Below, in pieces: positions 126-63,845 of a DNA stretch of 64,000 nucleotides. The notes below the pieces were generated by a model. It searched no databases, had not been told where the DNA came from, and saw only the letters and a list, made by a program, of their open reading frames with translations. The stretch spans positions 9,977,812 through 10,041,811 of the forward strand of contig NC_092675.1 in the NCBI RefSeq assembly GCF_964355755.1. Reading direction: 5' to 3'. The number at the start of each line of letters is the position of its first letter. Positions within the stretch are counted from its first letter, which is position 1. A program made the position numbers and the translations under genes. This DNA comes from Antedon mediterranea (Eukaryota > Animalia > Echinodermata).

Positions 126-221
126 TTAAGTCTCGTCCTCAACAAGGTCCTCCAAGACGTTCATCAAATCCGAGTGTGAACCGTTCGCAGCAAGCTGTTG
201 GGAAAGTGGCACTGATTAGTG
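126..221 (+). CDS. SORBS exon ([32 protein letters not shown])
   Basis: ttttacag|...G|gtgaga; 96 nt, phase 1-1, open frame. Confidence 0.75.
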
Positions 222-3200
222 GTGAGACCCATGTTTGCCGTTACAATGTGTTAACTTGCCTTGAATTAATGCAGTGCATGCAACAAACACAAATATTAAT
301 CAAAAATAATACAAAATTGCAAAATACAGTCAACTCTCTCGATATTGGACCCTGTGGGGCTTGCCCAAAATGCATGAATGAATGGCAGGTTTTCTAAATA
401 GAATTTTAATAGTACAGTAAAGGCAATCTAACAACAAGATGCTAAGCTCCAGGGATCAAATGGTTTATCTGTGGCTGCAACACAATCAGTTCCACGCCCC
501 TTAAAAGACACCTCGCCATTCGGAGAATAATGTACATAGTAGTGTACTGTTGGTATTTGTCGAAGCCAGATTTGTTTTAATGGAAAAAATTATGTTGGTA
601 CCTTTTAGACTGCAAGAAAAGTCTGATTTTGAGTTTCTGGTTTTCAGGACATTTTCAGTAGTATTTCACTATTGTATATTTGGGTCATTCTTCAGTGTCT
701 AAAATCGTGTCCCGATACTTTGGTGGGATGGAGACTGAAAATTCCTCATTAAAAAATAAAAATTCTTGACTTAAATCATAATCAACATTATTGTAAATAT
801 AATTAATTACATAAAACAAAGATAATTACATTGATATTGTTAATTTTTATAAAATGTTTCAGGCAACCCCCTAAAATCCTATGTCCCGATCGTACATCTT
901 CAATTTTATGATCGCCGTATATATTTGATAACAGGACTTTTGTTATCGAAAATATTGTAAAAAGTTAGTTAATCATGATTTCATGCGATTATATTCTTCG
1001 AAATACATCTCTACATACATTAAATCTCAAACTTTAAAGTTTTTGTTTGGAAAAAGCTTGTCCCGCAGTTTTGTGTCATTTCCGTCACATAATTTAAATG
1101 TGCCGTCTACAGTTTAATGAATGGCGGGGAAAAAAATTTACTGTGCGTTGTAAACATACGAAGATATTGAAATAAAACTAGCCGCACATCATTTTCAATA
1201 AAAGAGGAAAAAAGCTAATAAAACGAGGTTTTAGAAAAATTACAGTTGCGTACCTTTATTGAATGTCATATCCGAACGGTATAGAACTCATTAAATAATT
1301 ATAATTTCTGGTTTTTTTCAACTGGAAGTACAAGTTATTCATGGTATCCAGAAGTATGCAATCCGTCTCCGCTGTCAGACATGCCTACGATGTGATCCTA
1401 GGCTGTCCAATGTTAAATACATCATCTCTGTCACGGTCAGCTCCGTCACATTTCCCAATGTTTCGTTGTGACGGAGATGACGGCCCATGACGGATATGAC
1501 TTTTTGTTATTGCCAGGGCCTTTTTTTGTTTTATTATGTTATTACATTGTATATCTATGTGACTATGGTCAATAAACATAATCAAATCATATCTTAAAAT
1601 CATCTCGGTCACATGATTTTTTAAGTTCGTCATATCCGTCACGGTTTCATCTCCGTCACATGGATATTTTATCCTTTTAAATCCTAAGATATTTAAGTAA
1701 TGAACGCAATTATGTGGTATATTGAAATATAAACAATATTCTTCTACTATGTCAATGGATAGTAATATTAGTTCAACAGAATTTTGTAAAACATCAGTGA
1801 CAGTCATACTATTTTCTGAAAATTATTATTTTTTGGAATAGTAAATGGTTTTGAACGTATAACATCATACTAATAAATGTTAAAACAATCAATTTTTTGA
1901 TGAATAGAGACAAAAATAATATATAGTATCAAAGAATTAATAATGGAAATAATTTTATAATTCCTAAACCGTTATTTTTTCTATCTTTGTATATTCCATA
2001 AATGTGACGGAAATGACAGTAACATAGAACCATGTATTTATAAATACGAATAAAATACGAAATATATAATAAAGATTGCGCCAAACATACGCTTGCCATG
2101 TAATACATGTTCATTTATCTGAATAAACTTTTAAAATTTAAAAAATGCAAATTTTAAAATTGATTTTTTATAAACCTGAAATTAGACACTTACTGAAGAA
2201 TGACCCTCTTGTACAATATATTTATTATGGGACATTTGTCAATCAATGCCTCTTTGAATAATAATATACAATACATCATTTCTGTTGCATAGTATGTAAT
2301 GTATGAAATAGTTTTCAACTTTTTAAAATTTTACTCTTAATTTTCTTATATAATAGAATTCTAAATATCTGCACAATATGCATCACATGAATCTTCTGTG
2401 TTCAATGATATAGGAATTAATGCTGTGCAAAAGTTGTGCTGCTCTGTGGTATTAGTAACAAATTGTTATACTTTTTCTTAAATTACAATTTTTAATTCAG
2501 ATCCATCTGATCAGACTAAGTTGGAATTAGTGCAATTGCATGAAGTTGGAGGAAATGTGGTACATCGGGACCGTAACATCCATGTTGCACCCCAAGTTCA
2601 AGTAATTACAGGTAGGACTTAATTAATCTTCTATGAATATACTTCTTTTTATTACTATTGTACACAGTTCAAGACTATTAGGCAACGCCCAAACTTTCCA
2701 CAAAAGTTAATATAGTATTTGGAAAAATGTATTTATTAACACACCCGAGTAGATTCTTACCATTTGATTGGAGGATGGGTTGTATGACATTCAATAACTA
2801 ACTCCATTGAACTCTTACGTCATCTAGGGTGTAATTTTGTTATATGCCCGTTGAATTTTGTTGTATGAACATTCATTTTTGTTGCAATGAGCAACAATAA
2901 TACACAAAAGACGAGGCTGTTGACTCTCGTTAAAAATAGGGGTGTTATAAAATAAATAATGAATGTTTATTATTGAGCAAAGAACAAATAATTTAATTTT
3001 GGTGAAAGATAAAATGTTGAATTTCACCTCATAAATTTATTTGTACCATTGCAACATTCATTTATTTATGAAACATGCATATTTTGCAATACAAATCATA
3101 TGATTGTTTACACGTTTCTATTTATATGGATTAAATTCTTTGTAACCATGATTTATATAGCTAATATTTTGAATAATATTATGATTGAGATATTTTCAGT

Positions 3201-6200
3201 TTATTTTAAGTATATCGTAAGTTGAATAACCGCAATACAAGCATCACTTATTGATGTTTACTACGTAACAAACTATTAATAAAATGGATGTTGTGTCAAG
3301 GGAATTATAGTGACAGTAGTTACAAGCCAGTTGATGTATATAATCCTTGTTACCACACTACCTAAAAGAAATTGATATGCCATCAGTGTAATTCTCAATA
3401 AAATTGCAACTGGATATAAAATAATAAGTGATATTCTTCAATTGTCAAACATTTGTCAACATTTATAGCTTGCTAGTTCCAAAGATGATTGTTTTGTAAC
3501 TAACATTGCAGTGAAGACACAGAGATGCAGTCGCAGATGCATTTAATTATAAAACAGTGTCTGCCTCATATTTTTACATTATTATTTAGACTACTTATGT
3601 TTATAGAAGTTTTTATATTTTTTAATTTAATGCCATATTCAATTTCATTTGTGTCATAGTTATTGAAATCACAATTAGAAAACTAGATTTGAACTCGTCA
3701 CTACGGACGAGTTAGGTTATCCGCAGCGCAAACGCCACGTGCACGTCATACCGTGCACGTCATACGTTAGAATATTGCGCACAGAAAAACGATTATGCCA
3801 TTGAAAAAATGTTTGTGCGCTCTATTTTGTGTCATGTCTAAGTATATACAGTATAACACTGTATACATACTACATACAGTGCAGAATAGGTGAAAATAAG
3901 TGACCAAAGTTATTGACGCTTTTGGACATGATGACATCACAAAAAAAAAAATGTTAAATCATGCGAAAGATAATTGATTGACCTAGACAATATAAAAACA
4001 TGGGGGAAAATGAAATATGGATAAGTGGAGATGCGCTCTATTAAATGATTAAATGTGATGAGCTATGACGAAAGAGACAAAAATCCTCTATTTTATTTTC
4101 GAGTGGCCATACGATGACGTCACAATATTAGCCATATCAATGCATGATTCGATATCTACAATTCATCTACTTTCAGAATATGTAATAAAAAATAAAATTC
4201 ACCCTGTAGTTTAGAATCTATGACTGTTTAAAAAAAGGCATAATTTTGACGAATTGTTGAACTTTTTCATCAAAAACGCGCGCAAATTATCCAATTCCAT
4301 GTGCTCGTATGATGTGATTTTAAGTCAAAATTGTTTAAAAATTGGTAAAATTACTAGAAAAGGCTGGAAAAACATAAATCACGCAAAAAAAAGATGTTCG
4401 TTACCGCTACGTGCGCACCACGCGCGTAAAAATTTGCGTGTGTGTGGGAATTTTTGAAATGCTCAAAATGACATGAAACGCGTAGAAAGTTGATTAGAAG
4501 TTGATTTTTCGCAATTTAGAAATTTTAAACGCGCGTTACTTTTTGTGCAAAAATGCCATTTTTAATCCATAGAAAGTTTGCCCTTGATATGACTTAAATG
4601 TTCACTAAGTGTCATTACAAAATGACTTTTGGTTTGTAGTCTATATTAAATACACGCGTAACTTACGCCTGCGCGACTCTAAAGTAAAAAAACGAACGGT
4701 CCTGCACTTCTACAGATAGAGGTCAATCTTCTGACAAAGTTATACAATGTAATGTTGATAAGAATTTGAGATACACGTGACACAAAATTCTGGGAAAGAA
4801 GCCAAGTGCGGATAACCAATAATTCCAAACAAATGTTTTAAAAACCAATTAAATATACATAATATTAATGGAAGGTTAAAAAACATTTATTTATTTGTTG
4901 ATTGATCTTATTTTTAATAACATTTTTATTATTTTACAGATAAAAGTAAAATACCAAAAGGTGCTATCTATCAAAAACAAATCATAGAGGGCGACGTTGT
5001 ACATTATGATACTTACTACCCTGTAAAGGAGACAACAAGAACGTCACGAACCGTCCACCAAGAGAAGCCAGAATATTCTGGTATTGGACCCAGAGATGAA
5101 AGTGGCTTACCAGTAGGACTGCGACAGGTATTTTATTTATATTCAAAAATAGCTGTTTTTGTTGAATTTAGCATAACAGTTAAATTAATTCACAAATTCA
5201 TTTTAAAGGTCAATTCCACTTTTTTAACATCTTTTGTTTATTATATTGAATATGCGACCATATTGATAATTTATTCATTTTGCATACAATTTGAATTTCT
5301 ATCAATATGGTAGACATTATTATAGTTTACAGTATTGGTATATTTAATTTTCATTCTCTTAGCTAATTAGCTTCAGGATTTTAGAAGGCAAAACAGTAAA
5401 CTCCATCTAAAGTGCCACTACATTGGCAATTAACAAATCATTTATTTTTAAACTTTATTTAAAAAATTAAATATCCATCAATTTTTATTATTTATTATGC
5501 AAATTTGGACACAGCAAAAGGTAAACTATGCAATATTTATTGACTTTTAATTTATATATACCGGTACTATAATTCATATTTCAATAATTAAATTTAATTC
5601 TTAATTTGAGACAAAATAGAACTAAAATGAAGTTTAATTGGAAAATAATGACTTCAATATACTTTCATTGCAAAAGTTTTAGAATTTGATAAAGTATTTA
5701 ATAGAAATATTCATTTATGATATTGTATTATTCCTATATGATATAATTTTATTCACATTTATTTTTCAGTATCTTTGCAAATTCTTACTCATTAATTGTG
5801 ATAAAAACATTACATAACATTAACATTGTATAATTCTATAATAATAATATAATAAAAAAAAATCTGAATAGAAATTTCTTTAATTATAAAGTTTGTTAAC
5901 TTCTTCTTTTTTTCTGTAGCATGTAAAGGATGAGAATCGAAGCGACTGGTACAGACAAATGTACAAATCTATACATAAGATGGATAAGCCAGAGGGTATG
6001 TGTTCATTGATTGTCTTGAACGATAAAAAAATCAGTTATTCTTAACCGACTGTTTCAAAAGATTACAACTATCGGCAATTTCAAAGAGCAATTCAATTAC
6101 CAGCAAAATACATTTCCAATTTAAGTGGAATGATTTTGTTTTAGTTCATTTCGTTCTTTTCTTGTAGTTTGCCATCTTATTCCCAGTAGCCGTTGTCTCT

Positions 6201-9200
6201 TGTTTATTATAAGATTTATTTTCCTATAGGATCAATAATACATTTGATATTCTGTAACCTGAAGGCTTGCTTTTAAACTCTTCAACTTCCATGAACTATT
6301 CTGTAGCCTCATCTTGTAATTATTCCCAGTACTATTAAATGTATAAACTTTACTATTATTTGCTGTGAATGCAATAGGCCCACGGCAGAAATGTATGTTG
6401 TGTTGAAATATTAAATAATATCAGTATAGTCATACAGAAACTATTTCAGTGACCCAGGTTCATAGGTATGGTATGCATGGTAAAAAGAAATACTAACTAA
6501 TGAAATTAAAATTATGCATCATCTATTTTGTGTCGGCTGAGCAGGATAAAGCAGCAATAGCCTTCACTTTCTTGAGGGAGAGCTATAATAATGCACCAAC
6601 ATTTGTGGTGGTTAAGGCAGGGGTTCCACAAACCAATGATATACAATCAGCACATGTTCAACTTCTCGTCCATTGTTCTGGAGACAATCTTCTCAGATAA
6701 GGACATCTGGCTCGTGTGCACTTTCAAGAACCCAGTTCACCTTTCAGAAGGGTACTGTAGGGGTTACCCTGGTGGACTGGTCCATTCAGCCCCTGTCCTT
6801 GTGGACAGATGAACGGTGGCTTTTTGGTGGCAGCACTTGACACGAAGAGACCTTTGTTAGTTATTGTGTAGTCCACACCTGTACGCCTCAATTTAGCCCA
6901 GTTGGGCTGCAAGCCACAGCTTATTATTCTCCCACATTTATATCTAAACTTTTGTATCAAGACAGAATATTTGTAATTCTAAAAATGACATTGTTGTAAA
7001 CTTACGAACCACAAGCAAAACATAAAACCATTTCCTTGGAACAAATATGAATTAATTTACTGATACACACATTTACAATTTCCCATTTAATTTAAATTTA
7101 TATCCAAAGATCTGCTCTTAATCTTTAATGTTGTAAATAAACCTCAATATTCAACAAATATATGAAATGAAGCTGTAAAATATTGTGATTAAATTCCATT
7201 CTGCTCTTGTCAAAATACATTACTTTGTACATCTTTATTATTATGTTATTCCTATCATCAATTTTACTGCATCTAAATTTTAATAGAATTTTTGTAATGT
7301 AATGATACCAACACTCTAACACTCTAATTTTCTCTGATTCATCTACAGAAGAAGACAATAAGTACATGAGATTTTTAAGAGGTTAATAACATATTAGTTT
7401 ATAGTTCTAATTGTACACCTGTACTTTATGCATGCTTAATATTCTGCATGTTACTCAACAAAACAACATTGTTTATATCTAAAGCCCAAGCGTTGTACCA
7501 CGAGGCCTGACGAGTTGTCTAGTCGGTAAAAAATTTAACACTTTTGGTGTTCTTCCGATGACCTAAAACTATGCCCGACGCTGTCTCAAGACGACATGTT
7601 TTGGCTGGATTCAACTCGGACAGCACTGACCAGTCAAGACGTTTCGTCGGGAACCGTTGTACAACGCAGTCGAAGTTGGCCTTAATGCAGTCAGCTCTAT
7701 CAAACACTTGGACATCATTGGTCTGTCTGGAGTTTGAGTTGGTTTGCAACAAAATGATGGTTACTAAAACTTAAAATTAAACAGATTTAGTACATTTTTC
7801 AGTTTAAGCTTTTTTCACAATCTTTACCCTCCATTTTTCAGTTTAAGCATTTTCTGACAATTTTTTTTTCAGAGGCATGATATTTTTAAATTTTGTTTTA
7901 ATAAATTATTCATAGCATGTTTATGATTAAGTTAAGTTAATATTGCCACTTTTTATCGTATCTTATCCTTGTAAGTTCTTTTTTATGTGCATCATGTATG
8001 CAACCAGATACAACTGAATGTGAAGAAAGTATTTCGTTCATTGTAAAGCATGCACATTTTGTATGTTATAAAGTATTTAGCAGATAAAATGAATAACAGT
8101 GTACTCGTAATTACCCTATTTATTACATATTATTACATTGTTTTCCACAGAATGTGACCCGTATAGTCCTACATACAGTTTCCCTGATGATAGGAAAAGT
8201 GAAGATGGTAAGATTTTATATTGTTTTTTGTACTCTCTAATAAGGCACCTGCTCTGTTTGAACATGAATTTAATCAACTTATTTATCTCAGGGTATGCTT
8301 TAAGAATCTATGTATTTAAATTATTAACAACTAATTACAATTAGATCTAATAATTAACCCAAAAGCTATATGTTAAATTGTGGCCCTTCAGCACGAATAC
8401 ATACGGCCTTACCACATTGAAATACCGGTTTTCGTCAGATCAGACCATCTGGGAATATCGGGATGCTGTATATAGAGCTGGTCCTATTAGGCATTTGAAA
8501 TCAGCACTGCCCACTCTTATGGCAGCCTAATAGTATCTGCCTCAGAGGTATTAGCTTATGCCTCCCTGGCCTCTCCTCTGATCAAGGTGAGCACTGGAAA
8601 GAGAGAAGCCTTAACTGACATTGTCGTTTGCAATAGACGTCTGCCAATAATAAGCATGAATAAAATGTGCATTCTGTGGAATGCAGTAGTTTTCAAAAAA
8701 GAAACATTCCAAATAAATAAATAATGTAAAAAATAGAGCCTTTCTCCAGCTATGCAGAAAAGACTGTGTTTTTATTCTTAAGCATAAAATAATATGTTAT
8801 AGATTTGCATTTCTAGATTTGACAACATATTAGATGATACTGCCCTCATAGTTGAGAATGTACTGTGTGAATTAATATCGGTGTGCTTTATCTTACTAAA
8901 CCTCCATTGATGATTAAGCCTTTTAACTAAAATGGGTGTCTAGTATCAGAAAATGGTATAAATATGGTATATTAACATCTGAGTAAAATCTAAACATATT
9001 TTGTTGCCAAATTTTACACCTAGGTCATAGGGTTACTAGATGGAAGCACAGCATAATATTTTGCAATTTACTAATAAAACTGACATTTTTTGTAAAGAAA
9101 TTCTTGTTATTATTAATACAGCAAACTACTAATTTTATATATTTCTTAACTCTTTTCACTGTAACTAACATGGATTTCAGAAATTGTACAGACATTAGAT

Positions 9201-12200
9201 TTATTTATACCAATGGAAATGAAATCATCTTCCACTACCAATACTACTCCTACTAATCAGTTATCTTCTCTTAATAAAGGTGAGACACTAACATGTACTG
9301 ACACTACTATATTTAGCTTTGATTTAGTGTTAATGATAGCTTAGTAAGTTATAATTTTACATTTGAAAGTTTATCGCATAAGCATGTGATAATGTTTGTA
9401 TAAGTTAACCCAAGATACAACAATTTATAATCATACAGACTTTTAATCAAAATCAATAATAGATAAAAGGAATTTTTGCTTGTTTTATATATTTTTTATC
9501 ATCTTAATAAGGTATCGGCAATAACATAATTATTGTAATAGTTGTCGTCGTCGACGCCATCGTCATATACACATACGCAATAAATTTATCTTTAATAATA
9601 TTTGTTTGTGGTTGTTAAATTCAATTTGATACCAATTTTCTTACAGGAGAAGTGGTAATGAGACGTACTACGAAAGTCAACCCATCAGAAAGAGCGGATG
9701 CACAAAAAAAGAGGTACTCCGATGGCATATACCTACAGTATTTATCTAAGAAAGGGTAACATTTTGATTTTATCTCCCCTCCTTTTCTGGAAGCTTGCTG
9801 CAGTATCCGTGGCTGATTGCTATAAAATTGGGTCAACATTTAGAAGGGTGATGTTTGGCTTACTCAACTCATGATATTTACAATCAAGCCAGAAATATTG
9901 ATTTGCCTGCTTTCAAATATTTGTTTTTCTGAAGCTTAGTATAACTGACATGTAATCCATGCTGTATACAGGTATTATTGAAACCTGTACATTGGTATTG
10001 TATGATATTATACTATACTTTATAACGAAATGAATACAGAGTGAACGTTGTTTTGGATTGGTCAATTGATTTGTAGATCACAGGTCAAGTTTTTAGTTGT
10101 ATTAGGTCATCATGTTTCATAGAAAAACCTGATTACAATGTAAAAGGGTAGAGCATGAAGAATTTTAGATATAGGTCATTAATTTTACAGTGTTGTGATG
10201 CTTCTAAGGTAAAACATGAAACAAGTAATACAATCGCAATAATTTATTAGCATTGTAAACATATTTTCACAAATATCATGAGTTTTTTAAACCTTTACAT
10301 TGACTCTTTGGAATACATTGCTTTGATGTAAAACCTCTGTCTGGTGGCAGTCTGTGGTCTTGTATGTATAAATATTACAAATATTTTAAGTTAAATATTA
10401 AGTTTAATATATAACTTAAAGCAGAGCATTGGTTGGTTACTATGTTAACCAATAAGATTAAATATTTTTTAAGATGAGGGAGGATGTTGAGGTCGAGGTG
10501 CCCATATGACAAACAGTGATTCACTACCTAAATTATAGTAAATCACACAGTAACCATGCTTCTAAATTAAACATAGAAAAGATGATTGATTTAGTGCTAC
10601 TTTTCTAAATGCATGAAATTTCATTCAATATGATATATTGGCATGCTACATTTTACTGTTTATCACATCATTCCGTGTACTGTAAATGTTTTCTTATAAT
10701 GTATCTTATTTGCTTTTGGAAATTGCAATAATAAACTGCAATACTAGAAACTGACTATAACATTAACAAGAGCATTATCAACCTTAAGACATTACATTCA
10801 TCATTAAATACAGTATATGTCATTCTTTTATTCAATTCCATTTTGAACAAAAGATTTGCATTCATATAATTAGTTAATATTTTAAAATATTTTATTTTTT
10901 GTGAAGTAATGTACAAATAGATGCAAAGAACACAATAGACAGATACCAACAACAGCCTGGAAGTATACTTAACTATGTGCCTGGAAAATCATCCCTGTCT
11001 GAACGTGAGCGAAAGCATGTAAGTGAGCTGTGCATTGATTAATGAGAAGGTTGTAAGTGCAGTCCTTGTTGCAAACACTATGAGACACTAAATGTTAAGT
11101 GGTTATTTGTGAAGAAATTACAGAATGGTTCACTTAGTGCATAATCAAGTTTAGAAAACTGAGTAATAGAGTAATTTTTAGCCTCCTTAATAAATTTAGA
11201 GATTTTCCATTGCAACAGTATCTCATGATGTTTGTTTATAATATTTAAAATTGATTATTTTATAGCATCGCTTATTGTATATTGTTTGTTTTTTATACAT
11301 TTTAAATTAATTTTTAAATTTGTCCTTAATGTTTTAGCACAGAAAGTGTCACTCAGTATAAAGACAGAATAAATAAATAAATCCCAAGCAATTCAGTTTT
11401 TTTTTCTGATATTTTAAATAAAAAATAAATAAATAAAACGAATACAGCATATCAATTATATTTATAATGATTAATACCAATACCAATCCTATAGTTTTAG
11501 GTTTAAGTTTTGACCCCCCACACTACCAACATTTTGTTCATGATGACCATGTAATTGGCCTTAAGCTCTGTCTACACTATCAAACTTTACTATGTGACAA
11601 AATAATGTTATGTGCCCATATATGAACATGATGATGTCATATGACTACCATATTTTGGCATATGACTACCATATTTGGGCACATCAGATTTTTTTTGTCA
11701 AACTAGAGTGTAGACAGAGCTTTACAACAAGATTATTTCATTTCCAACTTTTGGAAATTGTTTTAAATACTAATATAATAATTTTATTTTATTCATTTTA
11801 GTCACTAGCACAAGAGCAATTCAATCCACCTCCAGAAGACACACAACCCAAGTTAGTATTTTGAACTTAATTTTTCCAACGAAAAACACATTTTGGCTGG
11901 AAAATGAATTTAGAGCAAATTATTGTAACAATGACAATAAATGACAATATAATTTATAGCGAGTCAAATGGCTGAGTGGTTAGATTCAAGGACAATTCGG
12001 CCCTGAGACGATTCGGCCCAGGACTTTTAGTGGGCTGAAACGTCTCACTTTAGACCAAATTCATATTCATTTTTTTGGTATTTATCCAGTTTTTAAAGGT
12101 GTTTAACAATCCGTATTTATTGATATTGACAATCTTGATATAATATATATAAAAAATTACTAAAAAAACTTAATTTTATATTCAATTTATTACTTCGAAA

Positions 12201-49330: not shown

Positions 49331-50123
49331 ACAGATGAATAAGACGAGGTAATATTATTCTTCATTTGGCTAGATGTTGTTTATTAATCCTTTTGCTATT
49401 AGAACCAGTAGTCGGATTGTTTCAGTTTTACAGGACACCGGTTTAAACCGCTGTATATTAAAACAAATATTCTTTTCAAGCAATAAATAATGTATATGTA
49501 TGTTGTTGAATTAGGTAAGATGCTATTTATTTTCTTCTCTTTTAAAATACTTTCCTCAGAGGTATGTTATATATATATATAAATATCATTCAGCTTATAG
49601 GAAAACAAATCTATTTATATCAGACAGGTACAATAAACTATGTTCAATATAATTATGAAATATTACATTACATTTTTATATTTTTTCATATAGTTGAATT
49701 CATTGCAATAATTGAATAACAATGTTTAGATATAATAAAATTTAAATATAATAAAATTATTATTAAATTAATTTTTAATATTAATTAAATATCTAGCAGT
49801 AACTATATCACTTTAAAAAAAATTTTGAGATGATCAATTTTATAGAAAACAAATTAAATTTAGATATAATTATAAGCCAAAGTATTGTAAGTTTATATAG
49901 AATATTAAATTGTAAATCTCAAGAAATGCCATCATTTCATAAAGAAATTAATAAATTGTAAAATAATTTAAAATAACTTACACAAATTAAATAAAAAAAA
50001 AAATCAGTAAATTTTTATAATAAATAAATGATATGAAGAATAGACTTTATATACAGTTATATTTAAAAATAGTTTTACAATTATTAGTTTGTTTTCTTGC
50101 ACATTTATAACAATTCAATTTGA

Positions 50124-50244
50124 AGCTCTAGTTTGACAGAAAAAGTTTGATTTTGTGCCCAAATATGGTAGTGATATGACATCATGGCCATTATGAGAAC
50201 ATGATATTTTTTGTCACATTGAGTTTGATAGTGTAGACAGGGCT
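50124..50244. mobile_element. MITE family A copy 4 (left TIR partly deleted), in the likely SORBS 3'UTR
   Basis: CCCAAATATGGTAGTGATATG unit and right TIR AGTGTAGACAGGGCT-TAA. Confidence 0.75.
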
Positions 50245-52526
50245 TAAGCTTCAATATGATGAATTCTTTGTGAATTATCAAATACATTATTTATAAATTT
50301 ATAGTAAACAGCTCAGTATTCATGCCATTTAAAAAAAAATGGTTATATTTTGTAAAGTCTTCCTGCTAATTTGTTAGTTTTATATTTCTAAATAACCAAA
50401 TAAGGCTGATATATTTCCGCTTAAGTTATTTTATGCTTCCTTATAATAATGTAGATAATGCAATTACTTATAGATATTTTTATTTTGCTATGTTAATGTT
50501 GTTTTAGTAGTGATATATTGGCTAAATTATCCCTGCTATAAATTATTGTAGTTTGTTGACGTGTTTCACTTGTGCTATGCATAGTCTCCATTATCCTCTG
50601 TCAGGTTTTTGAGTAGCCTTTTAATATATAATTTTTAATTTCTTTGTTTACACATTTTTAAAAAATCACTTTAATCCAGATATGCCACCTAAATACATTT
50701 TGTAAAAATTATTTAATTATTATGTCAACTATTTTATTTGTTATTGACATTAGTAATTTAAAGATAACAGTAAATTAAAAAAACTTTAATATATTTAGTA
50801 TCGCTGTATGTTTGTGTAGTTAAAATCGGTTAAAGTTTCAATACAGTATGTTTTTGCACCTATATAGTTGTTTTTTATTTAATAAATGTTAATTATATTG
50901 TTTTGAAAGGAAAATGTATGTCCAGTGTTTAGATATATTTTTGAACTAATTACGCACATTTTAACAAAAAGTGAGGAACTCTAAAGCGCCCTGCAATAGT
51001 ACTAAATTGAAACCGTGACTATTTTGAGGATTAAATAATTATGAGAATATGTTAATGATGATAAGTTATCATTGAGTTTAGGAAAGATAATGTGATTAAT
51101 ACATTGACTTTCCATATTTACAATATACAATGTATTTTAATGATAGATTGAAACAAATTATTTAGACATTTTTGTTAAGTTGGTTTTGAAAATAACATGT
51201 AGTTAATGCATTGATTTTATGATTTCTAATTACTGTACACTTAAATATAATTATAATCCACCTATGAATTATATGGATTTAGATATTGGATTAATATTTA
51301 TGATTTAGTTTTAAAGATGATTTTAATGTCAAGTAGATTGGATTTGGTTTGTGTGGTAGAAAGATGTAATTTAATGATAGTTACCACGATTAGTTGGCGG
51401 TTTATTTTAACATAAAGATTTGACAAAATATAGTAATTCATTTTTTGAGATTTCTTAAAATTGATTGAGAAACACATACATATTAACATAAATTAGGGAA
51501 TTGTAATAATAAATTTCAAGACTCTTTGGATAAAATTTAAAAAACTTTATATTACAAAACATCAGCGTGTATATAAGATTTATAATGCATTTTCAGAGTA
51601 TTGCGTAGATATTATTATTATTAATATATCTTGATTTAACTATTAACATTAATTTATTTATTTAATTAAGAAGGAGTGTTGTTTATATTGGCGTGTATAG
51701 CACTGAGACTGCGCAGTTAATCACATTATTGTTGTATGCACTGCCGTTCTTAGACATTAAAGTGACACATTTTGCAACTTACTATTTTAGTTGTATCATG
51801 TTTGTTTGTATTTATTAATCAACCCGTAGTCCTTTAAGCCGTGTTACGCAGCCAATAAAAGCCGATAATTAACCGATAAAGTTCCTGTGGAAACGGGGTT
51901 TAACCGATATTCCGCTGGAGAAAAATTAACCAATAATTATCTCATTCAAATCAGATAATTATCGGATAAATCCTTGCGTTGTGGGCTACTCATTTCTAAA
52001 TCATCACCAAGTCCTTTTATACAGTAGTTTCAGTGTGACACGAAATTTTGAACTATCGTTATCTATATCGTTATCGTTTGTTTTTGCCAATTTTAACACC
52101 CGTCCCTAACATTACGGTTTACCCCAAACTGTTGGAAGTTTCTTCCAAATTACTAAAGAGCAAAATTCATAAAGGGCTGAAATTCATAATCGCTGGAATC
52201 ACCTCGTTAAAGAAAACGGAAATATGTCTAGTTAAATTGACAACAATACAATTCTCTAAACGTCAAGAAACCGGTACCGGTACAGTACCAGCTGCACCAT
52301 TGCTTTGGTATATTCCAAATTATGACATGAACAAGTTTGATGTGACAATAACTTTTAATTTGAGGACTAAATGTATGTTTCACAGCACATTAAGATTTAC
52401 GAATTCAACAGATGTTTCGAAATGTGAACGGCTTCCAATCAACTTTATTCATGTCAGCTGTCATGTTGTTTTCACATATATATCAGATCAGCTTTTCACA
52501 AAAACTCTGAACATATCACATTATAA

Positions 52527-52690
52527 AGCTTGGTTCCCACTAGGAAGCAACGTAAAGACGTAGACGCAACGCAAACAAGTTGACCAATGACAAGCGCGAC
52601 AGTTCGAATAATCCATCGCATGTGATTGGTCAAATCCATTACGTTGCTACGTCGTTGTGTTGCGTCTGTAGGCCTAGTGGGAACCACGCA
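52527..52690. mobile_element. Harbinger-like MITE
   Basis: TIR GCTTGGTTCCCACTAGG / CCTAGTGGGAACCACGC, preceded by TAA. Confidence 0.75.
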
Positions 52691-54029
52691 TTGGGCATTC
52701 CACCGTCTTTGAAGTTGTCTGTTTCTTGTTTATAGTCCCATACTAGTAAAATTCACAACAAAATAAGCATCAGACAACATTATACCTTTCCGACATTTTT
52801 ATTGCATATATTTTTTTAATTTCAAGATATGAAATCAAAATGACACTGTGTAAAAATGATAAATTATCGTTATTATTTTATCCAGTCTCCATTATAGGCT
52901 ATCGACACCTAGTATTTCCCCGGATTCTATGACGTCGTGTGAATTTTACTGATGCCATTCTTCTCTTGTGTAATAATTACATTGCTTTTCTGTGATTAAC
53001 AAAATGGAGGCCAAAACTACACATCAACATCCAAAATCTAGGCAGATACACCAATCGATTTCTACTCAACATCCACTCCATTTGAATGATTTATTAGTAG
53101 GCCTAATGCCTACTATAATGAACAGTTGATTCCAGCATTGCATTGTTCAGTACACTTTTCCTTTTCTTTATAATGTTTTTTTTTCCATACCTTTTCCTTT
53201 GATAAATCAGATAACTGTTCATTTTGTCACGGATACATTATTAAATCCAGTTCTTACAATAATTTAGATTCTTTTATACTAGAGAATGTGCTTATAAAAG
53301 TTTCTTTTTACAATTTTTATCGAACGAGTCACCATCATTTTGAAATTCCAACATTTGTCTATAAAACTACATGATTAACTAATCAATTTATACGGCTAAT
53401 TTTCAAGATCCGCAAAAACACGATAGACATATAATAATGTATATCAAGTTGTCTCTTTTTATCATTTACCAACACAATTTTTAGTTGGTTAAATAGTTTA
53501 AATACATATCTTTTTCATATTTTATTGCATTTAACAACATGCCGAAATAATGGATATAATTGGGTTATTTTGTTGTCACCAAACCGGATTTTGATTTGGG
53601 AATTCATAATTTAATTTTGCAAGAACATGATGCTGACCTCCATTAGATCAAAGGTTTTATGTTTGGTTGCGACACGATCAGTTCCACGCCCCTAAACAGA
53701 AACCGGATAATAATGATACTTGAAACTGTAAGCGTATAGTATGAATTTGTCACAGCCAATCCTAAGATCAAAGGACTGTTAAAAGTTCCTATCTTGGCAA
53801 GGTGAGCTCAGTTGTTGTTAGATTGCCTTGTTGTCACTAAAATAGTGTGAATTTTGATGTCTTTTCCGTTGGAATAATGTCTTTTGTTATCATCAAATAA
53901 AATGTTTAATCATTGCTTTGTGAAAGTTTAATTTTGATATCATATTTGAAATATAAAAACACACTAATGTTTATTTCTAATCTGCAAATTCCATAACCAA
54001 CGTCTATACTATCAATTAAAAAAAAACGT

Positions 54030-55049
54030 TTATAAATCTTCACTTTGTGGTAGCCACATTTTCGGACCTTTTACCGGACGAATTTTTAACGCAGATTGGT
54101 TGTGTCGACTGATTCTCGGAGATGTAGAGTGTTGCTCAAATTGAACTCTTCTGCTACGTACTGCCGTAGAAGGAATGATCTCCTCTTCTTCTTCCTCCTC
54201 GTAATAATCTTGAACCCATGATTTGGGTCTTGCGTTAAAGTCGCTTAGTTTTTCTTGCCTTGCCTTCTTCGTAGAGATTCGGAATTCACTTTTTGGCAAC
54301 TGTGTATCAAGAATTCCAAGATCGAACGCGTCTTCTGAGCATTCTGAGCTATTCGCCCAGCCGGTTGGCGCACGGTTGTAGTTCATTTTGAACGGCTCAA
54401 CTTCTCGATGAAACCGTTTTAGACGTTCAGAATCACCTTTCCAAGATTTGGTAGAACGAGGCCGAAATCCATTGGTGTAACTGTAATCGACTTGTTCTAT
54501 TGATCTTTCTTGACTTCGTTGTTGAACTTTCCTAGGAATGCGTGGACTTGTGACGTTTTGGAATTTTCTTGTAGCGGGTTCCTCGTAGGTTTTATCAGCA
54601 GAGATGGTTACTTCTCTGAAGGTTTCTTCCCATGGTGAATAATTCCTAACTTGCTTTTTCTTAAAGACTTTGTCGTCATCGACAACGTGTTGATCTGTAT
54701 GTTCACGAGCACGCACAAACATTTCCGCCGCTCGACTCCCGCGTTTTCCCGTAATTAGCTCTTTACTTTGAATTTTAGGCCTAGACGGCGAAACCGTCCG
54801 CCGTTTCGGGCGGTCTTCTTCAGCCATGTGTTGGGGATTCACGTAATAATCCTTCGATTGACTAGTGTGTCGCACCGGCTTCGGTTCGTATTGTTTAAAC
54901 TTTTGTGATTCAGGAGCATATTGTAATTCATTGTGAGGAATTTCATACCCTGCCTGTTGTTTCATATACATCATTCGTCCTTTTGAAGCAGGATAGCCTG
55001 TCAACTCGTACATGCTTACACCGTATTCCTCAGCGTATGGTTTCCACAT
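54030..55049 (-). CDS. Myozenin/calsarcin (FATZ)-like protein, 339 aa, single coding exon
   Basis: Motifs 'ELTGYPASKGRMMYMKQQ', 'RGSRAAEMFVRAR', 'YSPWEE', 'NYNRAPTGW', 'DFNARPKSW' and C-terminal 'QSEDL'; splice acceptor directly before the ATG. Confidence 0.8.
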   Translation of the reverse strand: MWKPYAEEYGVSMYELTGYPASKGRMMYMKQQAGYEIPHNELQYAPESQKFKQYEPKPVRHTSQSKDYYVNPQHMAEEDRPKRRTVSPSRPKIQSKELITGKRGSRAAEMFVRAREHTDQHVVDDDKVFKKKQVRNYSPWEETFREVTISADKTYEEPATRKFQNVTSPRIPRKVQQRSQERSIEQVDYSYTNGFRPRSTKSWKGDSERLKRFHREVEPFKMNYNRAPTGWANSSECSEDAFDLGILDTQLPKSEFRISTKKARQEKLSDFNARPKSWVQDYYEEEEEEEIIPSTAVRSRRVQFEQHSTSPRISRHNQSALKIRPVKGPKMWLPQSEDL

Positions 55050-55941
55050 CTTAATAAAACAAAAGTTGTCAACTCAATACTCAAATTATTTTCTCATTTG
55101 TACGAAATAATAAAGTCACATTGACAGCAACGTTAAAACGCGTCAGTAAAGCCGCCTTGATTAAATCGTTTCTTTATTTTTTACTGACCACGATAGTGTA
55201 TATTTCCACGTAGTGTCCATATATAAATTTCAGTCAATAACGCCTATAAAGTCGAATCACAGTTTGTTCATAAAGTTTAACAGCTGTCCAACTGCGATGC
55301 TGTAACGTATATTGCGTTAGGACGTCATCAGACACGTGTACGCCTCAGGGGCATGCGTTTTACCTGTTCTGACTTCTCTCCCTATGGATAAAATTAAATG
55401 AAATCATAACATAATACAGTAGGTTGTTTAACGTTAAAGTACTTAGTACTTTGCCCCAGTAGGATCAAGCTAGGATTACGATAAGTTTACATACTGACAA
55501 ACTGAAACAATACTGGATTCGACCTAGACCAGTCAGTGCTCATACAAATTATTAAATTAATGTTGAATTTTTGGTTTACTCCAAATACCTATCAATAATT
55601 TTACTGTATAGTTCATTGATTTTTTTCTGTTATCTTGTTGTGAATATGATTTGAAATGCAATAAGTTCAATAATTTATATTTTGCCATGCAATATTATAA
55701 TTTTACTTATAAGCTCATAGTTTCTAAAACGTCTGTTTCTGATTGGACGTGTTTTATCGCATTTGTGCTTTTCTAGTCCAGAATGGCTTTACATTAAAAG
55801 CTGTATGATCCTGAATAGAGATCAAACCATCATCAAACTGATTAAACAAATTAATATTTCCCAAAAGAGATTTAAAACAGACTTTCTGCTTGTTTTACCG
55901 ATGGTAAACAATTCGTTCCATTTCCATTTATTCATTAAGCG

Positions 55942-57600: not shown

Positions 57601-57715
57601 CTTCTGTTTTGCCTGTAAAAACGTCTAAAATACAGCCGCCTTTTTATTCTGAAGTGACAAGCAGTCCGGTTGGATCCGTCAACGTTAAATTCCCAGGCAA
57701 GTCTGTTGCATTCTA
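57601..57715 (-). other. Putative non-coding first exon of the myozenin-like gene
   Basis: Consensus donor AAG|gtaagt at 57601/57600 on the - strand; in-frame TAG upstream so 5'UTR; 5' boundary approximate. Confidence 0.5.
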
Positions 57716-57742
57716 CCCAGGCCTCAGCTCGATCGCTCGACA

Positions 57743-57773
57743 GATAATTTATTCATCATGGATCCATATTTGG
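57743..57773 (-). promoter_or_regulatory. CArG box (CCATATTTGG, 57764-57773) plus AT-rich TATA-like element
   Basis: Perfect CC(A/T)6GG just upstream of the putative first exon, outside any MITE context. Confidence 0.45.
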
Positions 57774-59984
57774 AGGTGAAGAGGTGACATGTGCCCAGTC
57801 CGTCTCACTGAGAGGTACATTTATTTTCAATGAAAAGACTCATTAATAGCGAATACAATTGTTAGTATATCGGGTACTTAATATTTATAGAATGGTGTTC
57901 TGGTGTGAACCTAGGCCAAAACGAAATTTAAATTCCCAATTTGTGGGAATCGGTATCTAGAGGCTATATGTATCCCTTGTATCCACTTAGTGATGTAGTC
58001 CTATTGTAATGTAAACATAACATTCATTTTCCCGGCCAAATTTTGACCTTTATTTTTTGACATAAAGTGTTCAATTATATACTAGATCACGATGCTACGT
58101 ATAAAAATATAGGAATATTACCGCATAATAATTGAATTAAGCTCGTATTTTAGGTGATTTAGCAAAAAAAAATCTTCGACATAAAACGCTTAATTACCAT
58201 ATAAGACGATGATAACACAATATATGGTTTTATAAGATGATGATTTCAATGTACGCGCAATATACAAATATTAGACCATAAGATGTTTTATTATTAAAAC
58301 AAGAATGATTTAACAATGGTTTGTTAAAATATTTATTTATTGCAGTTCAAAGGCAAACTCAAAATGAACATTCAATTCTAAAAATGATGATTTAAAAAAA
58401 AACTAGGTCTATAGATAATAATTTTGGTGAATTACAATAAAAACTCTTTGTAAAAGCTACAACAGAAAAAGATATTCTTAACGAATTCGATCGGAAATTA
58501 TTTAAAAAAAAGCTTTAATTTAATTAATAGCATTTCAACATGTTTAAATTGACGTATGGTGTTGTATTGTTTACTAGAATAAAATTATCCAGATTCAATA
58601 TTGTTCTCTCCACCGCACTTTCTATAACGATTGTTTTACAATTATTATCATTATGAGTATTATTAAAGTAACCTACATTTTAAATGTTGCCTAATTTAAA
58701 TAATTTTTATTCATTATATTATTTCCAAGAAAAATACAATACCATATCATGATTGTATGTACTGACTACTCTGGCAAACACACGAATACAACTTCCGTCC
58801 TTCAAAGTATCTCATCAAAAAAATACCTTCTTTACATCCAAAATACCATCATCATGTAAAAATAACTTTCTTTCAAAAAATATGACTTAATTTATTAGTG
58901 AAAACTAAGCTGACGGCATTATTCTCAACTAGACTCGTACACACGACCTATATCCACAATGTAATTACGTCATAGAAAGACTAATAAGAGAATATACACA
59001 TAAACAATCATCAAAATACGTAAAATTAGTACATTATATTTCACATAAAAATAACAAATAAGGCTAAAAATAACAAGAAGTGACTGAAGTTGTTCAGAAC
59101 ATAAATAAGCAAGATTAATTGATCACACTCCTGTTTTGACGGTTATCACTATTTTTAATTTCATAGATACCGTGGTTAAAATACATTTCTATTTAGTTTC
59201 ACATTTCAAAATATATTCGCATGATTAGACGCAAAATATATTGAAAACAACATAGGCATATTTGGCCAAACGAATTATTTATTGTTATTTACTCGAAAAC
59301 AAAAGTTATCTAAAGTTTCGCCATCGCATATTAGAACAAAATAATTCTAAATGCCCGATAATGCTAGAACCAAGATAAAACCATCAGCTCCTCATTACAA
59401 TTTTTTTGATTGATTTAGTTCCTTTCAAAAATTATTTCAGAAATGTAGTATAGATACGACTGCTAACAGACATTATAGATACACATTCCTAGTTACCTGA
59501 TTCTGAAATCAAATAAACGCAGGTTCTACGATCTTTTAACACACATATTAGCCTATTATAATTATTTTAATGAAATACCGCAGATGAAATACAACAGAAT
59601 ATTTAAAAATATCTTTGTTAATATTATTATTAAGTTATTGAACGACGATTCGATTTATATCAAGACAGATAGATCAAAGTCACATGGCACATAAAAAGTA
59701 ATTTGTAGGCTTTAGTTATATTGTAGGACTATGGCTAGTAATTTATTCTAATAACACTGCTGAGTATGGGTATAGAACCAAACATCAGCCACATAATAAC
59801 CTAGTTAGGCCTAATATTAACAATTATCTAATACAAAGGTCTTCGTGTTTTTTTTTCTGAGTACACGTGAAGAATCTGTCTCTTTATTTTTTTTTACCGT
59901 TTTGAATGTGTTAATAATAATTCCTTCAACTTACATTATTTCCTAATGAGAATTCTAGACATATATTATATAATATATATAGTA

Positions 59985-61165
59985 TTACAGATCGTCGCTT
60001 TCCACAATAACTGCGGACGTTGGACTGGAGTAGTCCCTTGTAGGTGAGTCGTGTTGGGTGGGAGATCGGAAACCTCTGGGTTTAGAATTAAAATTAGGTA
60101 CCTTGTGTGGAACAGTGGGAAGACCCGCATTTGGCTTGAATTCATTAGTTATCGAAGACTCTGATAAGGGTGGGGAAATTATACCTGGTGTACTGTCTGG
60201 GGACGTCCAAGACCTAGGATTTGGACGAAAGTTAATTCGTGATGAGCCTGGACTAGCATTGACGTCGTTGTGCGTATTTCTGGCGTCAAATTTTGGCTGA
60301 AATCGTGGAGGTAATTCACCATTTGTCGTCGGTTTATCTGTCGATACTTCATCTGCTTTGAATGTCGGCCTTGCAACAGTGTAACCGGACTTCTTCGGCC
60401 TAAAATCTGGCACGATTGTAGACGACTGCATCCAGGAAGCCGGTGGTTTAGGTTTTTCAAATTTCTTAGTGAATTCAATAGGTTTAGTGCTTGTGTTTAA
60501 ATAATCAAACGCGGCGTCCACCCTGCCTTTAGGATCTTGTGAAGCAGCTTCCCAGGGGGTTATTTTTGGTTTACTAACTGGAGCTGTTTTGCCCTGCATA
60601 GCAATAAATTCCAAGGATACATTGAGTGGTTCATCGCGTTCTGATTTCTTGAGCACAACTTGCGGTGCCGTCATCGTCGGCTTCTCAGGCACCACATACT
60701 TTTCAGATCGCTTTCGCCGTTTTTCAAACATTTGAGCACCGCGTCCTGTTTGTGACGTCAAATCCTGCACAAGAATGTTACATCGTTCTGGCGGAAGTAA
60801 GTCGTGTCTACACTTCTCTTTATCCTTCAAGTTGACATTGAAGTCAATAGGTTCTATAATTAATTTACGCACTGGGGGTAATTCGGGAGGGGGTAACGGT
60901 ATAAATCCAGGAGGAAACATTGATACGCCACCTGAAGGGCCTGTGGTTGTCACTTCTTCAAATACCTCTGTTGTGGTGGTCACCGTTTCGTCAGGTCCTT
61001 GTCCAACACTTTCTAATGTCCATTTGGCACTTCTTTTTCGCCGCTTTGCGAACATTCTAGCTCCTTTTGTGTTCTTATTGGTCGGGAATAATAATAGATC
61101 AGAAATCGTTTTGCAGGCTTTACGGACATCTTCCGGATGTACGTCTGCGTCGACGGAGACTTGAG
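59985..61165 (-). CDS. SYNPO2: Synaptopodin-2/myozenin-like gene, last coding exon
   Basis: ttttag acceptor at 61166 extends the 356-aa ORF: 'VRKACKTISDLLLFPTNKNTKGARMFAKRRKRSAKWTL', 'GRGAQMFEKRRKRSEKYVV', 'TPWEAASQDPKGRVDAAF', 'NFNSKPRGF', ending ESDDL*. The symbol is a family label. Confidence 0.88.
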
Positions 61166-61778: not shown

Positions 61779-61984
61779 CTATAAAATAAAATTTCAAAAA
61801 AAGTATAAGCCTAATGTTAAAAGTAGATAATGGTTGTTGGGTTATTTGTTATTTATATGAACTTAAACTCTCTTTTAATTCGTGATTTCTTTAATGTTAA
61901 CAGCATTTTACAATTTTTTTAGACGTGACGTGGTCATAGCCTAATGTACTTAAATAAATATAGGCCTAAGTCATTACAGTAGTA

Positions 61985-62885: not shown

Positions 62886-62974
62886 GTCTCCGTGGCGCAA
62901 TGGATAGCGCGTTGGACTTCTAATGTTTAACAGCTGGCATTCAAAGGTTGCGGGTTCGAATCCCGCCGGAGATG
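62886..62974 (+). tRNA. tRNA-Arg(TCT) with 16-nt intron
   Basis: Same exons, intron ATGTTTAACAGCTGGC, T-stem GCGGG/CCCGC, long poly-T terminator. Confidence 0.96.
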
Positions 62975-63494
62975 TTCTTTTTTTTTTTTTTTTTTTTTTT
63001 AAACTCTATTTTTTAAAACTTTAGATTAAATAACAACTACTTTATGTTTTACAAATTTTGTTTTCTATTTATATTTTTCGTTTTGAGTTTTTTTTTTTGG
63101 TACATAAAAAATTATTTCCGTCACAAGAAACATGCAATAAAAAAGAGGGCGCTATTTATATTCAATCCCGAGCCATAATATCCATGGCTCTGATTCGATC
63201 ATCTTCCTTCAGTCACCAGGATAATAAATCAAAGTTGAGCATTAAAAAAAAACCAACATTATACCGGTATTCTATATTAAACTTTAAGCTGTGTGACATA
63301 AAAATGTAAAGTGTAACAATGACGAAGTCGATGAAATTATTCATACATAAATACAGTGTGTATTGTTGATGTAAAGACACAGATACAGTATATTAATAAC
63401 ACAACAGGCCTATTTTATAATTTGTTTTATGCGAAATAACGGTAAAAGAAATAGAATAGGAAAACGAACGTCTAAAACAACATTATTATTTTAC

Positions 63495-63845
63495 CTTTTA
63501 AAACTGTATTTTCATTGGATATAGGTGGCGTCCACGTCCTTGCGACAGGTGCCGATACAGGTGTAGTAGTAGCCGCTGGCGACCAGACTTGATTAACTAC
63601 CCCATTTTGTAGATTGTTTGTTACAGTAAACTGTTTTTTGGGAGAAAGATGTATTCCAACGTCTGGACAGTCATCGTTAGTCCGGCGAACGCGTGACGTG
63701 GTTGTAGTGGTAGTTTTCTTGTAACTAGTCATCACTTGGGGCTGGTCGGCATCGCTTGATTGCTGTTTGTGTGGGGTTGCTGACCAGAGTGGTGCTTTTA
63801 TCCCCGGGACTATTGTAGAAGGTTGGAAACGTATACTATGGAATC
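63495..63845 (-). CDS. SYNPO2-like gene, internal exon (gene continues beyond window)
   Basis: Pyrimidine tract + atacag acceptor; G|gtaaaa donor; 351 nt, phase 1-1; FHSIRFQP...VWSPAA...TWTPP. Confidence 0.82.

Follow-up and report, generated by a model that had tools for sequence, protein, structure and literature searches.

A 64,000-nucleotide window (the whole stretch of DNA analysed here) from the crinoid Antedon mediterranea raises the question of whether Z-disc genes with linked functions once shared a physical cluster: in it, three scaffold-protein genes matching RefSeq proteins lie together. A SORBS gene on the forward strand faces a tandem pair on the reverse strand, which consists of a short gene and a long synaptopodin-2-like gene. 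The preliminary description placed SORBS tail-to-tail, about 5 kb apart, with two calsarcin/synaptopodin-family genes, and this arrangement held: the SORBS stop and the short-gene stop are separated by 4,700 bp, the long-gene stop lies 4,936 bp from the short-gene ATG, and the homology of both reverse-strand genes was computed. The family assignment is correct because the last exon of the long gene matches Pfam Calsarcin and the short gene is homologous to the long gene. The best explanation, to which we give about an even chance, is that these are three separate genes forming a block of likely echinoderm-ancestral age, which regulation shared in muscle has probably held together. The features of the locus are as follows.

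125..49330, forward strand: window part of the SORBS/CAP gene, 22 coding pieces in isoform P0092
4939-5127 and 5920-5994, forward strand: SORBS exons with the SoHo (Sorb) region (P0092 mapping; PF02208 on the whole protein)
34064-34114, 34985-35098, 36160-36279 and 38418-38534, forward strand: SORBS SH3-1 and SH3-2 exons
48444-48609, forward strand: SORBS SH3-3 exon (Pfam and P0092 mapping)
49320-49330, forward strand: final SORBS micro-exon, encoding the RefSeq end YPD; stop 49328-49330
49331..54029, no strand: 4.7-kb interval separating the two facing stops, which probably contains the 3' UTRs of SORBS and the short gene
54030..55049, reverse strand: short synaptopodin/myozenin-family gene, single coding exon; ATG 55049, stop 54032-54030
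55050..55381, reverse strand: portion of the short gene's coding exon that is 5' UTR; acceptor AG at 55383-55382
57602..57970, reverse strand: putative first exon of the short gene, without coding sequence; donor at 57601
59985..61163, reverse strand: synaptopodin-2-like last exon, with two calsarcin helices, TPWEAA, FNxxPRG motifs and C-terminal ESDDL
63846-63496 and 61779-61498, reverse strand: synaptopodin-2-like upstream coding exons (P0077 mapping)

RefSeq isoform P0092 matches 21 window pieces of the SORBS gene letter for letter, from 125 to 48608, and a 42-nt alternative exon at 46927-46968 is one of its 22 coding pieces. The N-terminal ~340 aa, including the PDZ exons, are encoded upstream of the window, while all 14 SORBS isoforms share the C-terminal end AKFYPD. 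Pfam detected PDZ, Sorb (PF02208) and SH3 domains on P0092 and P0093, giving an architecture of PDZ, SoHo and three SH3 domains; the Sorb region, a weak match in any single exon, was also recovered at exons 4939-5127 and 5920-5994 by tblastn with other invertebrate SORBS proteins. The best PDB matches of the SH3 domains (residues 857-985 and 1094-1150) were SORBS1, SORBS2 and vinexin, and those of the N-terminal PDZ, which is of ALP/Enigma type, were PDLIM5, PDLIM1, PDLIM7 and LDB3. An N-terminal PDZ is also carried by amphioxus, snail and soft-coral SORBS rows, which suggests that vertebrates have lost this domain, and PF00595 occurs in none of the vertebrate-named SORBS rows among the SH3 matches listed. 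No other named echinoderm SORBS was present in the best 120 of 5,818 SH3-search matches. Fission of such a PDZ-bearing SORBS into PDLIM and SORBS genes was considered and judged unlikely, because the PDZ is N-terminal whereas PDLIM sits 3' of SORBS. No PDLIM/LIM coding motif was found within the window.

Between the converging stops, contig pieces of X1 (an RNA run by guess only, used solely for what its contigs cover) span 50211-51702 and 52794-53702. These pieces are probable 3' UTRs, reaching about 51.7 kb for SORBS and about 52.8 kb for the short gene, an assignment to genes that we infer because X1 contigs carry no strand. A further X1 contig spans 53673-55383 and then continues into 367 letters located elsewhere, and an X2 contig continues to 55971. 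Position 57601 is the sole strict consensus donor between the two reverse-strand genes, and the upstream limit of the putative first exon, 57970, was guessed from how many letters of the X1 contig are unplaced (367).

The PDZ exons of the long gene lie beyond the window end, and its protein P0077 begins with PDZ-type sequence. Its last exon matches Pfam Calsarcin (PF05556) in two stretches with 37.5 bits (cut-off 24). Among 15 aligned long-family relatives, 13 match this profile at E<=0.1 and eight contain PF00595; P0001-P0003, three relatives without a name, correspond to short versions of the long gene that lack the PDZ. The long gene, we infer, is the one pro-orthologue to which all three podins of vertebrates correspond. 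Vertebrate and fly podin relatives are described to bind actin and alpha-actinin and to locate to Z-discs or dense bodies.

The short gene encodes a protein of 339 aa (P0212 in NCBI) without PDZ, which carries a degenerate calsarcin helix 1, helix 2, SPWEE, two [FY]Nxx[AP]xxW motifs and a C-terminal QSEDL. Sequence comparison shows that it is homologous to the last exon of the long gene, though diverged. HHalign gave 98.5% (E 3.3e-15), the window's protein scored 36.4 bits against a profile of long-gene C-terminal halves (reached by 0 of 200 shuffles, best 3.8), and all six short proteins scored 19-53 bits with the same motif order, with 0 of 200 shuffles as high in each case. Moreover, all conserved short-gene motifs are found within the long gene's last exon. 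The expectation that both reverse-strand proteins would match calsarcin/synaptopodin profiles therefore stood for the long gene and failed for the short one, since 0 of 6 short-family members matched PF05556 at E<=10 with HMMER filters on. The Pfam Calsarcin profile is built mainly on myozenins. Thus the short gene falls outside the Pfam Calsarcin profile, though it is homologous to the long gene; as a diverged last-exon homologue without a profile match it is at most a candidate myozenin orthologue, and "myozenin-like" is a label by architecture only.

Myozenins end in a PDZ-binding sequence of class III, E[ST][DE][DE]L. The short-family tails are ESDDL in five of six proteins and QSEDL in the window's, and since the long genes end alike, the xS[DE]DL tail cannot separate the short from the long group. 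An SPW motif, present in four of the six short proteins scanned, resembles the P-W of FATZ-1 LM1; FATZ-1 has P187-W188 in LM1 and a ZASP site in its last five residues. PDB searches with short-family, long-exon and mixed profiles gave no match to the FATZ-1 chain. A whole-library search with the short protein returned five matches including itself, all of them echinoderm or unnamed records. In the ESM Atlas, the window's short protein retrieved no relevant cluster, and the top named cluster of its Patiria orthologue had 22% Calsarcin members, mostly chordate (score 0.85), which is a lead only. A predicted complex of the SORBS PDZ (1-88) with the last 35 residues of the short protein scored 0.27 against a mark of 0.34 and, its controls being unfolded, speaks neither for nor against binding.

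In the phylogenetic tree, the five short proteins formed one branch (100/100), and a crinoid-only duplication giving rise to the short gene was rejected with a p-AU of 1.29e-5. The best tree placed the short genes and the echinoderm long genes on one side of a branch whose support of 35/64 leaves it unsupported; this tree has long branches, contains no myozenin rows and gives no resolution at the root of the short branch. The short gene likely arose through terminal-exon duplication of the long gene. A tandem copy of the terminal exon with a promoter of the short-isoform type would have yielded it, the duplication would predate the crinoid/eleutherozoan split, and it would run parallel to the vertebrate SYNPO-MYOZ pairs without necessarily being the same event.

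The block is not confined to Antedon. According to the position-sorted Table S2 of PMC11310086, chr15 of the brittle star Amphiura filiformis carries Synp2 (forward strand, with PDZ) at 15,496,391-15,557,531, three unnamed forward-strand models, and Srbs1 (reverse strand) at 15,599,729-15,721,091, in the same order and orientation as in Antedon, and 6,778 bp separate an unnamed 13-kb model from SORBS. The chance of this Synp2/Srbs1 arrangement in a random order was estimated at about 1e-4 to 5e-4. Previous work described this genome as the most rearranged among echinoderms, and the rearrangement of echinoderms other than brittle stars as slow (PMC11310086). AFI22439, the model found where the short gene would be expected, is given an 'Amphiura filiformis'-specific age in that table and corresponds to the short gene by position only. 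In Patiria, the short XP_038060766 and long XP_038060767/8 have consecutive accessions on a scaffold of 23,093,800, and in S. purpuratus XP_003724370 and XP_011680477.2 are both on a scaffold of 29,984,350; in both, linkage is by proxy, from scaffold length and accession, and the comparison is of the tandem pair, the position of SORBS having been compared in one other echinoderm, the brittle star. Accession distance as a negative test of linkage was discarded, as SORBS and Synpo, though adjacent in Antedon, have accessions about 1,440 apart. Linkage beyond one species or genus, on which the preliminary description had made its proposal depend, was thus found, with the SORBS/Synp2 order kept in the brittle star and the tandem pair in starfish and sea urchin. 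Because the brittle star keeps the order and orientation of the outer genes, the trio block likely goes back to the most recent ancestor shared by all living echinoderms.

No synaptopodin row was present in the part of PMC12588293 File S1 (Paracentrotus) searched, and the Pliv/PL gene numbers in that part of the file are not positional at gene scale. The supplement of PMC10396339 gave 0 matches for the locus genes, the part of the PMC11959729 supplement searched gave no relevant match, and no publication on SORBS/short/synaptopodin linkage was found in the literature searched.

As for what has held the block together, SORBS acts in an alpha-actinin/actin network. The podin and FATZ families are described as working in the same network. 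Both podin-like proteins would be mostly disordered and serve as actin/alpha-actinin scaffolds at Z-discs or dense bodies, their xS[DE]DL tails would be ligands for PDZ domains of the ALP/Enigma type, and the SH3 domains of SORBS would connect to adhesion sites. Shared enhancers or a common chromatin domain in muscle would make splitting the block costly, and shared muscle regulation, for which the expression evidence is weak and mixed, is the likely reason for its retention. In the brittle star, four of the five block models peak in the adult arm, compared with 6 of the 31 other rows read. That common peak, the membership of all three families in one network and an order kept in the most rearranged echinoderm genome argue against neutral retention, in which tandem duplicates simply stay paired, no breakpoint has fallen in the few-kb SORBS gap and no regulation is shared. 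The slow rearrangement of most echinoderm classes, brittle stars apart, makes such an account possible, and a gap this short between genes gives breaks little room to fall. In its favour, the brittle-star block models also differ in time-series cluster (A1, A1, A2, A2 and minor4) and in peak level (84 to 5,974 TPM, an about 70-fold spread in whole arm, which is not equivalent to muscle), and CArG/MEF2 motifs between the two reverse-strand genes show no clear enrichment, as high a value being reached in 60 and 40 of 500 shuffles. We regard neutral retention as improbable. A cluster of two genes, in which the short ORF serves the synaptopodin-like gene as an alternative last exon, is highly improbable. 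An in-frame acceptor-like AG does stand directly before ATG 55049, and the upstream joint of the X1 transcript is not seen in contigs, but the X1 contig passes 55049 to the acceptor at 55383 with an in-frame stop between, four of five short proteins have their initial Met at one shared alignment position (the fifth is a fragment), and the Patiria short protein has its own LOC in NCBI, apart from the long isoforms X1/X2.

A deeper reading sees the block as what is left of a Z-disc cluster of greater, deuterostome or bilaterian, age, in which the short gene is a myozenin orthologue, a single ancestral Synpo-Myoz duplication took place and SORBS was separated in vertebrates. SYNPO2-MYOZ2 and SYNPO-MYOZ3 are neighbour pairs, the three human pairs are on the same strand with Synpo upstream, and human SORBS and the SYNPO-MYOZ pairs lie on the 4/5/8/10 paralogon, together with the human homologues of the brittle-star neighbours Sprc and Sh24b; all this would suit a relic. 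Likewise, human MYOZ1 adjoins SYNPO2L (PMC11477451). The layout of the short protein (short, no PDZ, P-W motif, xS[DE]DL tail), the Calsarcin share in the Patiria cluster and the lack of resolution at the root of the short branch are also consistent with it. Myozenins, however, are multi-exon genes, while the short gene has one coding exon, its relatives in the whole-library search are restricted to echinoderm or unnamed records, and the Calsarcin profile separates the short family (0/6) from the long one (13/15). In addition, the synaptopodin-like CG1674 of Drosophila is on chromosome 4 with no CAP, the fly SORBS, in its 80-gene list. Among the matches examined, no species outside the echinoderms supplied both genes. 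Hence we consider this relic unlikely. A deuterostome-wide Z-disc cluster as such is rather doubtful, and we hold with little confidence the fuller proposal that the trio is the ancestral deuterostome Z-disc locus, with the short gene an unrecognised invertebrate myozenin, the SYNPO-MYOZ tandem predating vertebrates, the vertebrate SORBS-PDLIM and SYNPO-MYOZ pairs being halves of one muscle cluster, and SORBS having retained an ALP/Enigma PDZ that could recognise the tails of the neighbouring genes' products.

Myozenins are usually viewed as chordate or vertebrate Z-disc additions, and no origin of the SYNPO-MYOZ pairs was described in the literature searched. A block spanning the echinoderms, with another calsarcin-superfamily gene that has no name, offers a handle on the age of the SYNPO-MYOZ tandem, and if the echinoderm duplication is independent, a short podin lacking the PDZ arose there in parallel. 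Because AFI22439, the positional match of the short gene, reaches about 6,000 TPM in the adult arm, the short gene may be a major unannotated muscle protein. One of the vertebrate pairs, SYNPO2L-MYOZ1, is an atrial-fibrillation locus according to PMC11477451.

Compared with known systems, the crinoid SORBS shares SoHo and three SH3 domains with SORBS1/2/3 (CAP/ponsin, ArgBP2 and vinexin), but unlike the vertebrate proteins it has its own N-terminal ALP/Enigma-type PDZ. SORBS1 adjoins PDLIM1 in birds and human (PMC3786927), whereas the 3' neighbour of the crinoid SORBS is a podin-family pair and not a PDLIM. The long gene resembles fish synaptopodin-2 in its N-terminal PDZ, calsarcin helices and [ST]PWEAA, and several of its orthologues are named 'synaptopodin 2-like' in RefSeq; its ESDDL tail and FN..RGW motifs, however, are unmatched in the two fish SYNPO2 rows. 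CG1674, described as the fly orthologue of the SYNPO2/SYNPO2L podins with a conserved calsarcin domain (PMC11753949), is not linked to CAP, while the crinoid long gene is in a block with SORBS. Finally, the tandem is like SYNPO2L-MYOZ1 in that a long podin gene lies beside a short calsarcin-superfamily gene, but it differs from the SYNPO-MYOZ pairs in that the echinoderm short gene has a single coding exon and no Calsarcin profile match, the crinoid long gene ends in ESDDL, and SORBS is the next gene.

The window holds a real and apparently undescribed block of microsynteny that extends across echinoderms and includes a calsarcin-superfamily paralogue without a name; the SORBS, synaptopodin and calsarcin families themselves are already known. 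No description of the SORBS/podin linkage or of the short echinoderm family was found in the open-access literature searched. The sequence has a G+C content of ~31% and no N, and the Antedon mediterranea RefSeq proteins of all three genes belong to the same 31,698,884-base contig. The genes are arranged as follows:

125 to 48608, + strand, SORBS/CAP gene, 21 pieces from the exact mapping of its RefSeq isoform P0092
from 49320 (stop 49328-49330), + strand, 11-base final exon of SORBS, encoding the YPD end
55049-54030, - strand, short gene, a single coding exon of 339 aa
63846-63496, 61779-61498 and 61163-59985, - strand, three exons of the long synaptopodin-2-like gene

The preliminary description had set SORBS tail-to-tail with the - strand pair, about 5 kb stop-to-stop, and the mapped stops of SORBS and the short gene indeed lie 4,700 bp apart. 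The SORBS protein combines PDZ, Sorb and SH3 domains (Pfam), and its best solved-structure relatives in a PDB search are SORBS1, SORBS2 and vinexin. Its last SH3 exon is 100% identical to the Antedon mediterranea RefSeq protein, and the YPD ending is common to all 14 stored isoforms (14/14). If the donor at 48610 stayed unspliced, the SH3-3 exon could be read further (48609-48620, +) to a stop at 48618-48620, with the ending KFCTY, which is absent from the stored isoforms, all of which splice to YPD.

Several further elements were observed in the SORBS introns. An open frame of 1,127 codons (14107-17487, +), with an acceptor-like AG at 14163, is present in 0/14 stored isoforms, has no Pfam match above cut-off, and gave no blastp match against the proteins gathered in this analysis; it is probably an alternative giant exon (one Saccoglossus SORBS isoform reaches 3,832 aa). 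A 173-codon frame in a long intron (25218-25736, +) is likewise absent from the stored isoforms and without a Pfam match above cut-off. A Myb/SANT-like DNA-binding ORF fragment (20630-20887, +; PF13837, 41.8 bits) is a possible remnant of a Harbinger-type transposon. The last long intron carries two copies of a ~500-bp element (~45870-46390 and 47390-47895), one with 58-nt terminal inverted repeats; the element has very high contig depth in sequencing runs X1 and X2 and is a MITE-like repeat.

Residues 1-85 of P0092 form an N-terminal ALP/Enigma-type PDZ, encoded by exons upstream of window position 1, whose best matches are PDLIM5, PDLIM1, PDLIM7 and LDB3. Among the best 120 of 5,818 SH3-search matches, PF00595 also occurs on amphioxus, Biomphalaria and soft-coral SORBS rows and on no vertebrate-named one, which suggests that this PDZ is an ancestral domain that vertebrates lost.

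The ORF of the long gene is 100% identical to an Antedon mediterranea RefSeq protein; isoform P0077 of this gene starts with a PDZ whose exons lie past the window end. Several orthologues are labelled 'synaptopodin 2-like' in RefSeq (starfish, sea urchins and the hemichordate Ptychodera). Both - strand genes had been assigned to the calsarcin/synaptopodin family, and against Pfam Calsarcin this held for the long gene, matched in its last exon at 37.5 bits (13/15 members of its family), but not for the short gene, with no match in the window's protein or in any member (0/6). The short gene nevertheless joins the family by profile-profile alignment with the long genes (98.5%, E 3.3e-15). When a profile was built from the C-terminal halves of 17 long genes, all six short proteins scored 19-53 bits with it, and 0/200 shuffled versions of each came up to its score. 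The motifs follow the same sequence as in the long gene's last exon, namely a degenerate calsarcin helix, a second helix, [ST]PW, two [FY]Nxx[AP]xxW and xS[DE]DL. Searching 1.84 billion representatives with phmmer returned five matches at E<=0.001 for the short gene: itself, a Patiria protein, an S. purpuratus-containing cluster and two unnamed proteins. FATZ-1 was not reached by PDB searches with short-family, long-exon or mixed profiles. In the ESM Atlas, the Patiria orthologue led to a mostly chordate Calsarcin cluster (score 0.85, a lead only), and the window's short protein gave no such lead.

In a tree of 22 rows and 458 columns, without myozenin rows, a single long branch unites the five short proteins (support 100/100), and short and echinoderm long genes lie on one side of an unsupported branch (35/64). 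A duplication confined to crinoids, grouping the Antedon short gene with two crinoid long genes, was rejected (p-AU 1.29e-5), so the short/long duplication is older than the divergence between crinoids and the remaining echinoderms.

A contig of run X1, which we guess to be RNA, covers 53673-55383 and continues with 367 letters placed elsewhere. Its matched part stops two bases inside an AG acceptor, and an X2 contig extends to 55971. This pattern fits a spliced transcript of the short gene whose putative first exon is non-coding; in the interval separating the short and long genes, a donor of strict consensus occurs at 57601 only. Two intron-containing tRNA genes (56660-56749, -, and 62886-62974, +) were also observed, one inside a synaptopodin-like intron and the other inside the short gene's putative first intron. 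Rfam alignment gives both the anticodon UCU (Arg), and the Pyl identity from ARAGORN in its bacterial setting was a miscall.

The linkage extends beyond the species and genus. By proxy evidence, the short and long genes are recorded on contigs of equal length in S. purpuratus and in Patiria, where their accessions are also consecutive (XP_038060766 and XP_038060767/8). In Table S2 for Amphiura filiformis, whose rows are sorted by position, chromosome 15 carries (PMC11310086):

Synp2, + strand, with PDZ, 654 TPM
AFI22677, + strand, 83 bp beyond Synp2, probably its split last exon
AFI22439, + strand, 13.3 kb, 5,974 TPM
AFI22148, + strand, 634 bp
Srbs1, - strand, 84 TPM

Order and orientation are as in Antedon, and 6.8 kb separate AFI22439 from SORBS; the match of AFI22439 to the short gene is purely positional, and the table dates this model as species-specific. 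Under random gene order such a match has a chance of ~1e-4 to 5e-4, and this genome is described as the most rearranged among echinoderms (PMC11310086). AFI22634 (15,727,351-15,814,471) shares the strand of Srbs1, sits immediately upstream of it and has an adult-arm peak; this model may be the split 5' portion of SORBS. Synp2 also has Sprc and Sh24b as neighbours within 0.3 Mb.

At Z-discs and dense bodies, SYNPO2, with PDZ and PDZ-less isoforms, is described as binding both alpha-actinin and filamin C (PMC10778272). In FATZ-1, two linear motifs are described as binding the rod of alpha-actinin, and the five C-terminal residues as binding ZASP (PMC8163081). Both podin-like proteins may be disordered actin/alpha-actinin scaffolds, disorder of the short protein being suggested by its Atlas model (pLDDT 0.42), and their tails would suit ALP/Enigma PDZ domains such as that of crinoid SORBS. 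Shared muscle regulation is the likeliest reason for the block's persistence, on weak evidence, since 4/5 block models peak in the adult arm versus 6 of the 31 other rows examined in the Amphiura table. These models fall in different time-series clusters with a ~70-fold spread in level, and no CArG/MEF2 enrichment was found between the short and long genes.

That the block is an ancestral Z-disc cluster older than echinoderms, as the preliminary description proposed, seems rather unlikely. Among the hemichordate, amphioxus and mollusc sequences covered, no species yielded both SORBS and the synaptopodin-like gene. No LIM motif was found within the 64-kb window. Human SORBS-PDLIM and SYNPO-MYOZ pairs presumably lie on the 4/5/8/10 paralogon, and we take SYNPO2-MYOZ2, SYNPO-MYOZ3, SORBS2-PDLIM3 and SORBS3-PDLIM2 to be further vertebrate pairs. 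In Drosophila, CG1674 is described as the synaptopodin orthologue (PMC11753949), and a list of all 80 fourth-chromosome genes includes it, with CAP and Zasp absent (PMC11917476). Among vertebrates, MYOZ1-SYNPO2L (PMC11477451) and SORBS1-PDLIM1 (PMC3786927) are reported as neighbour pairs.
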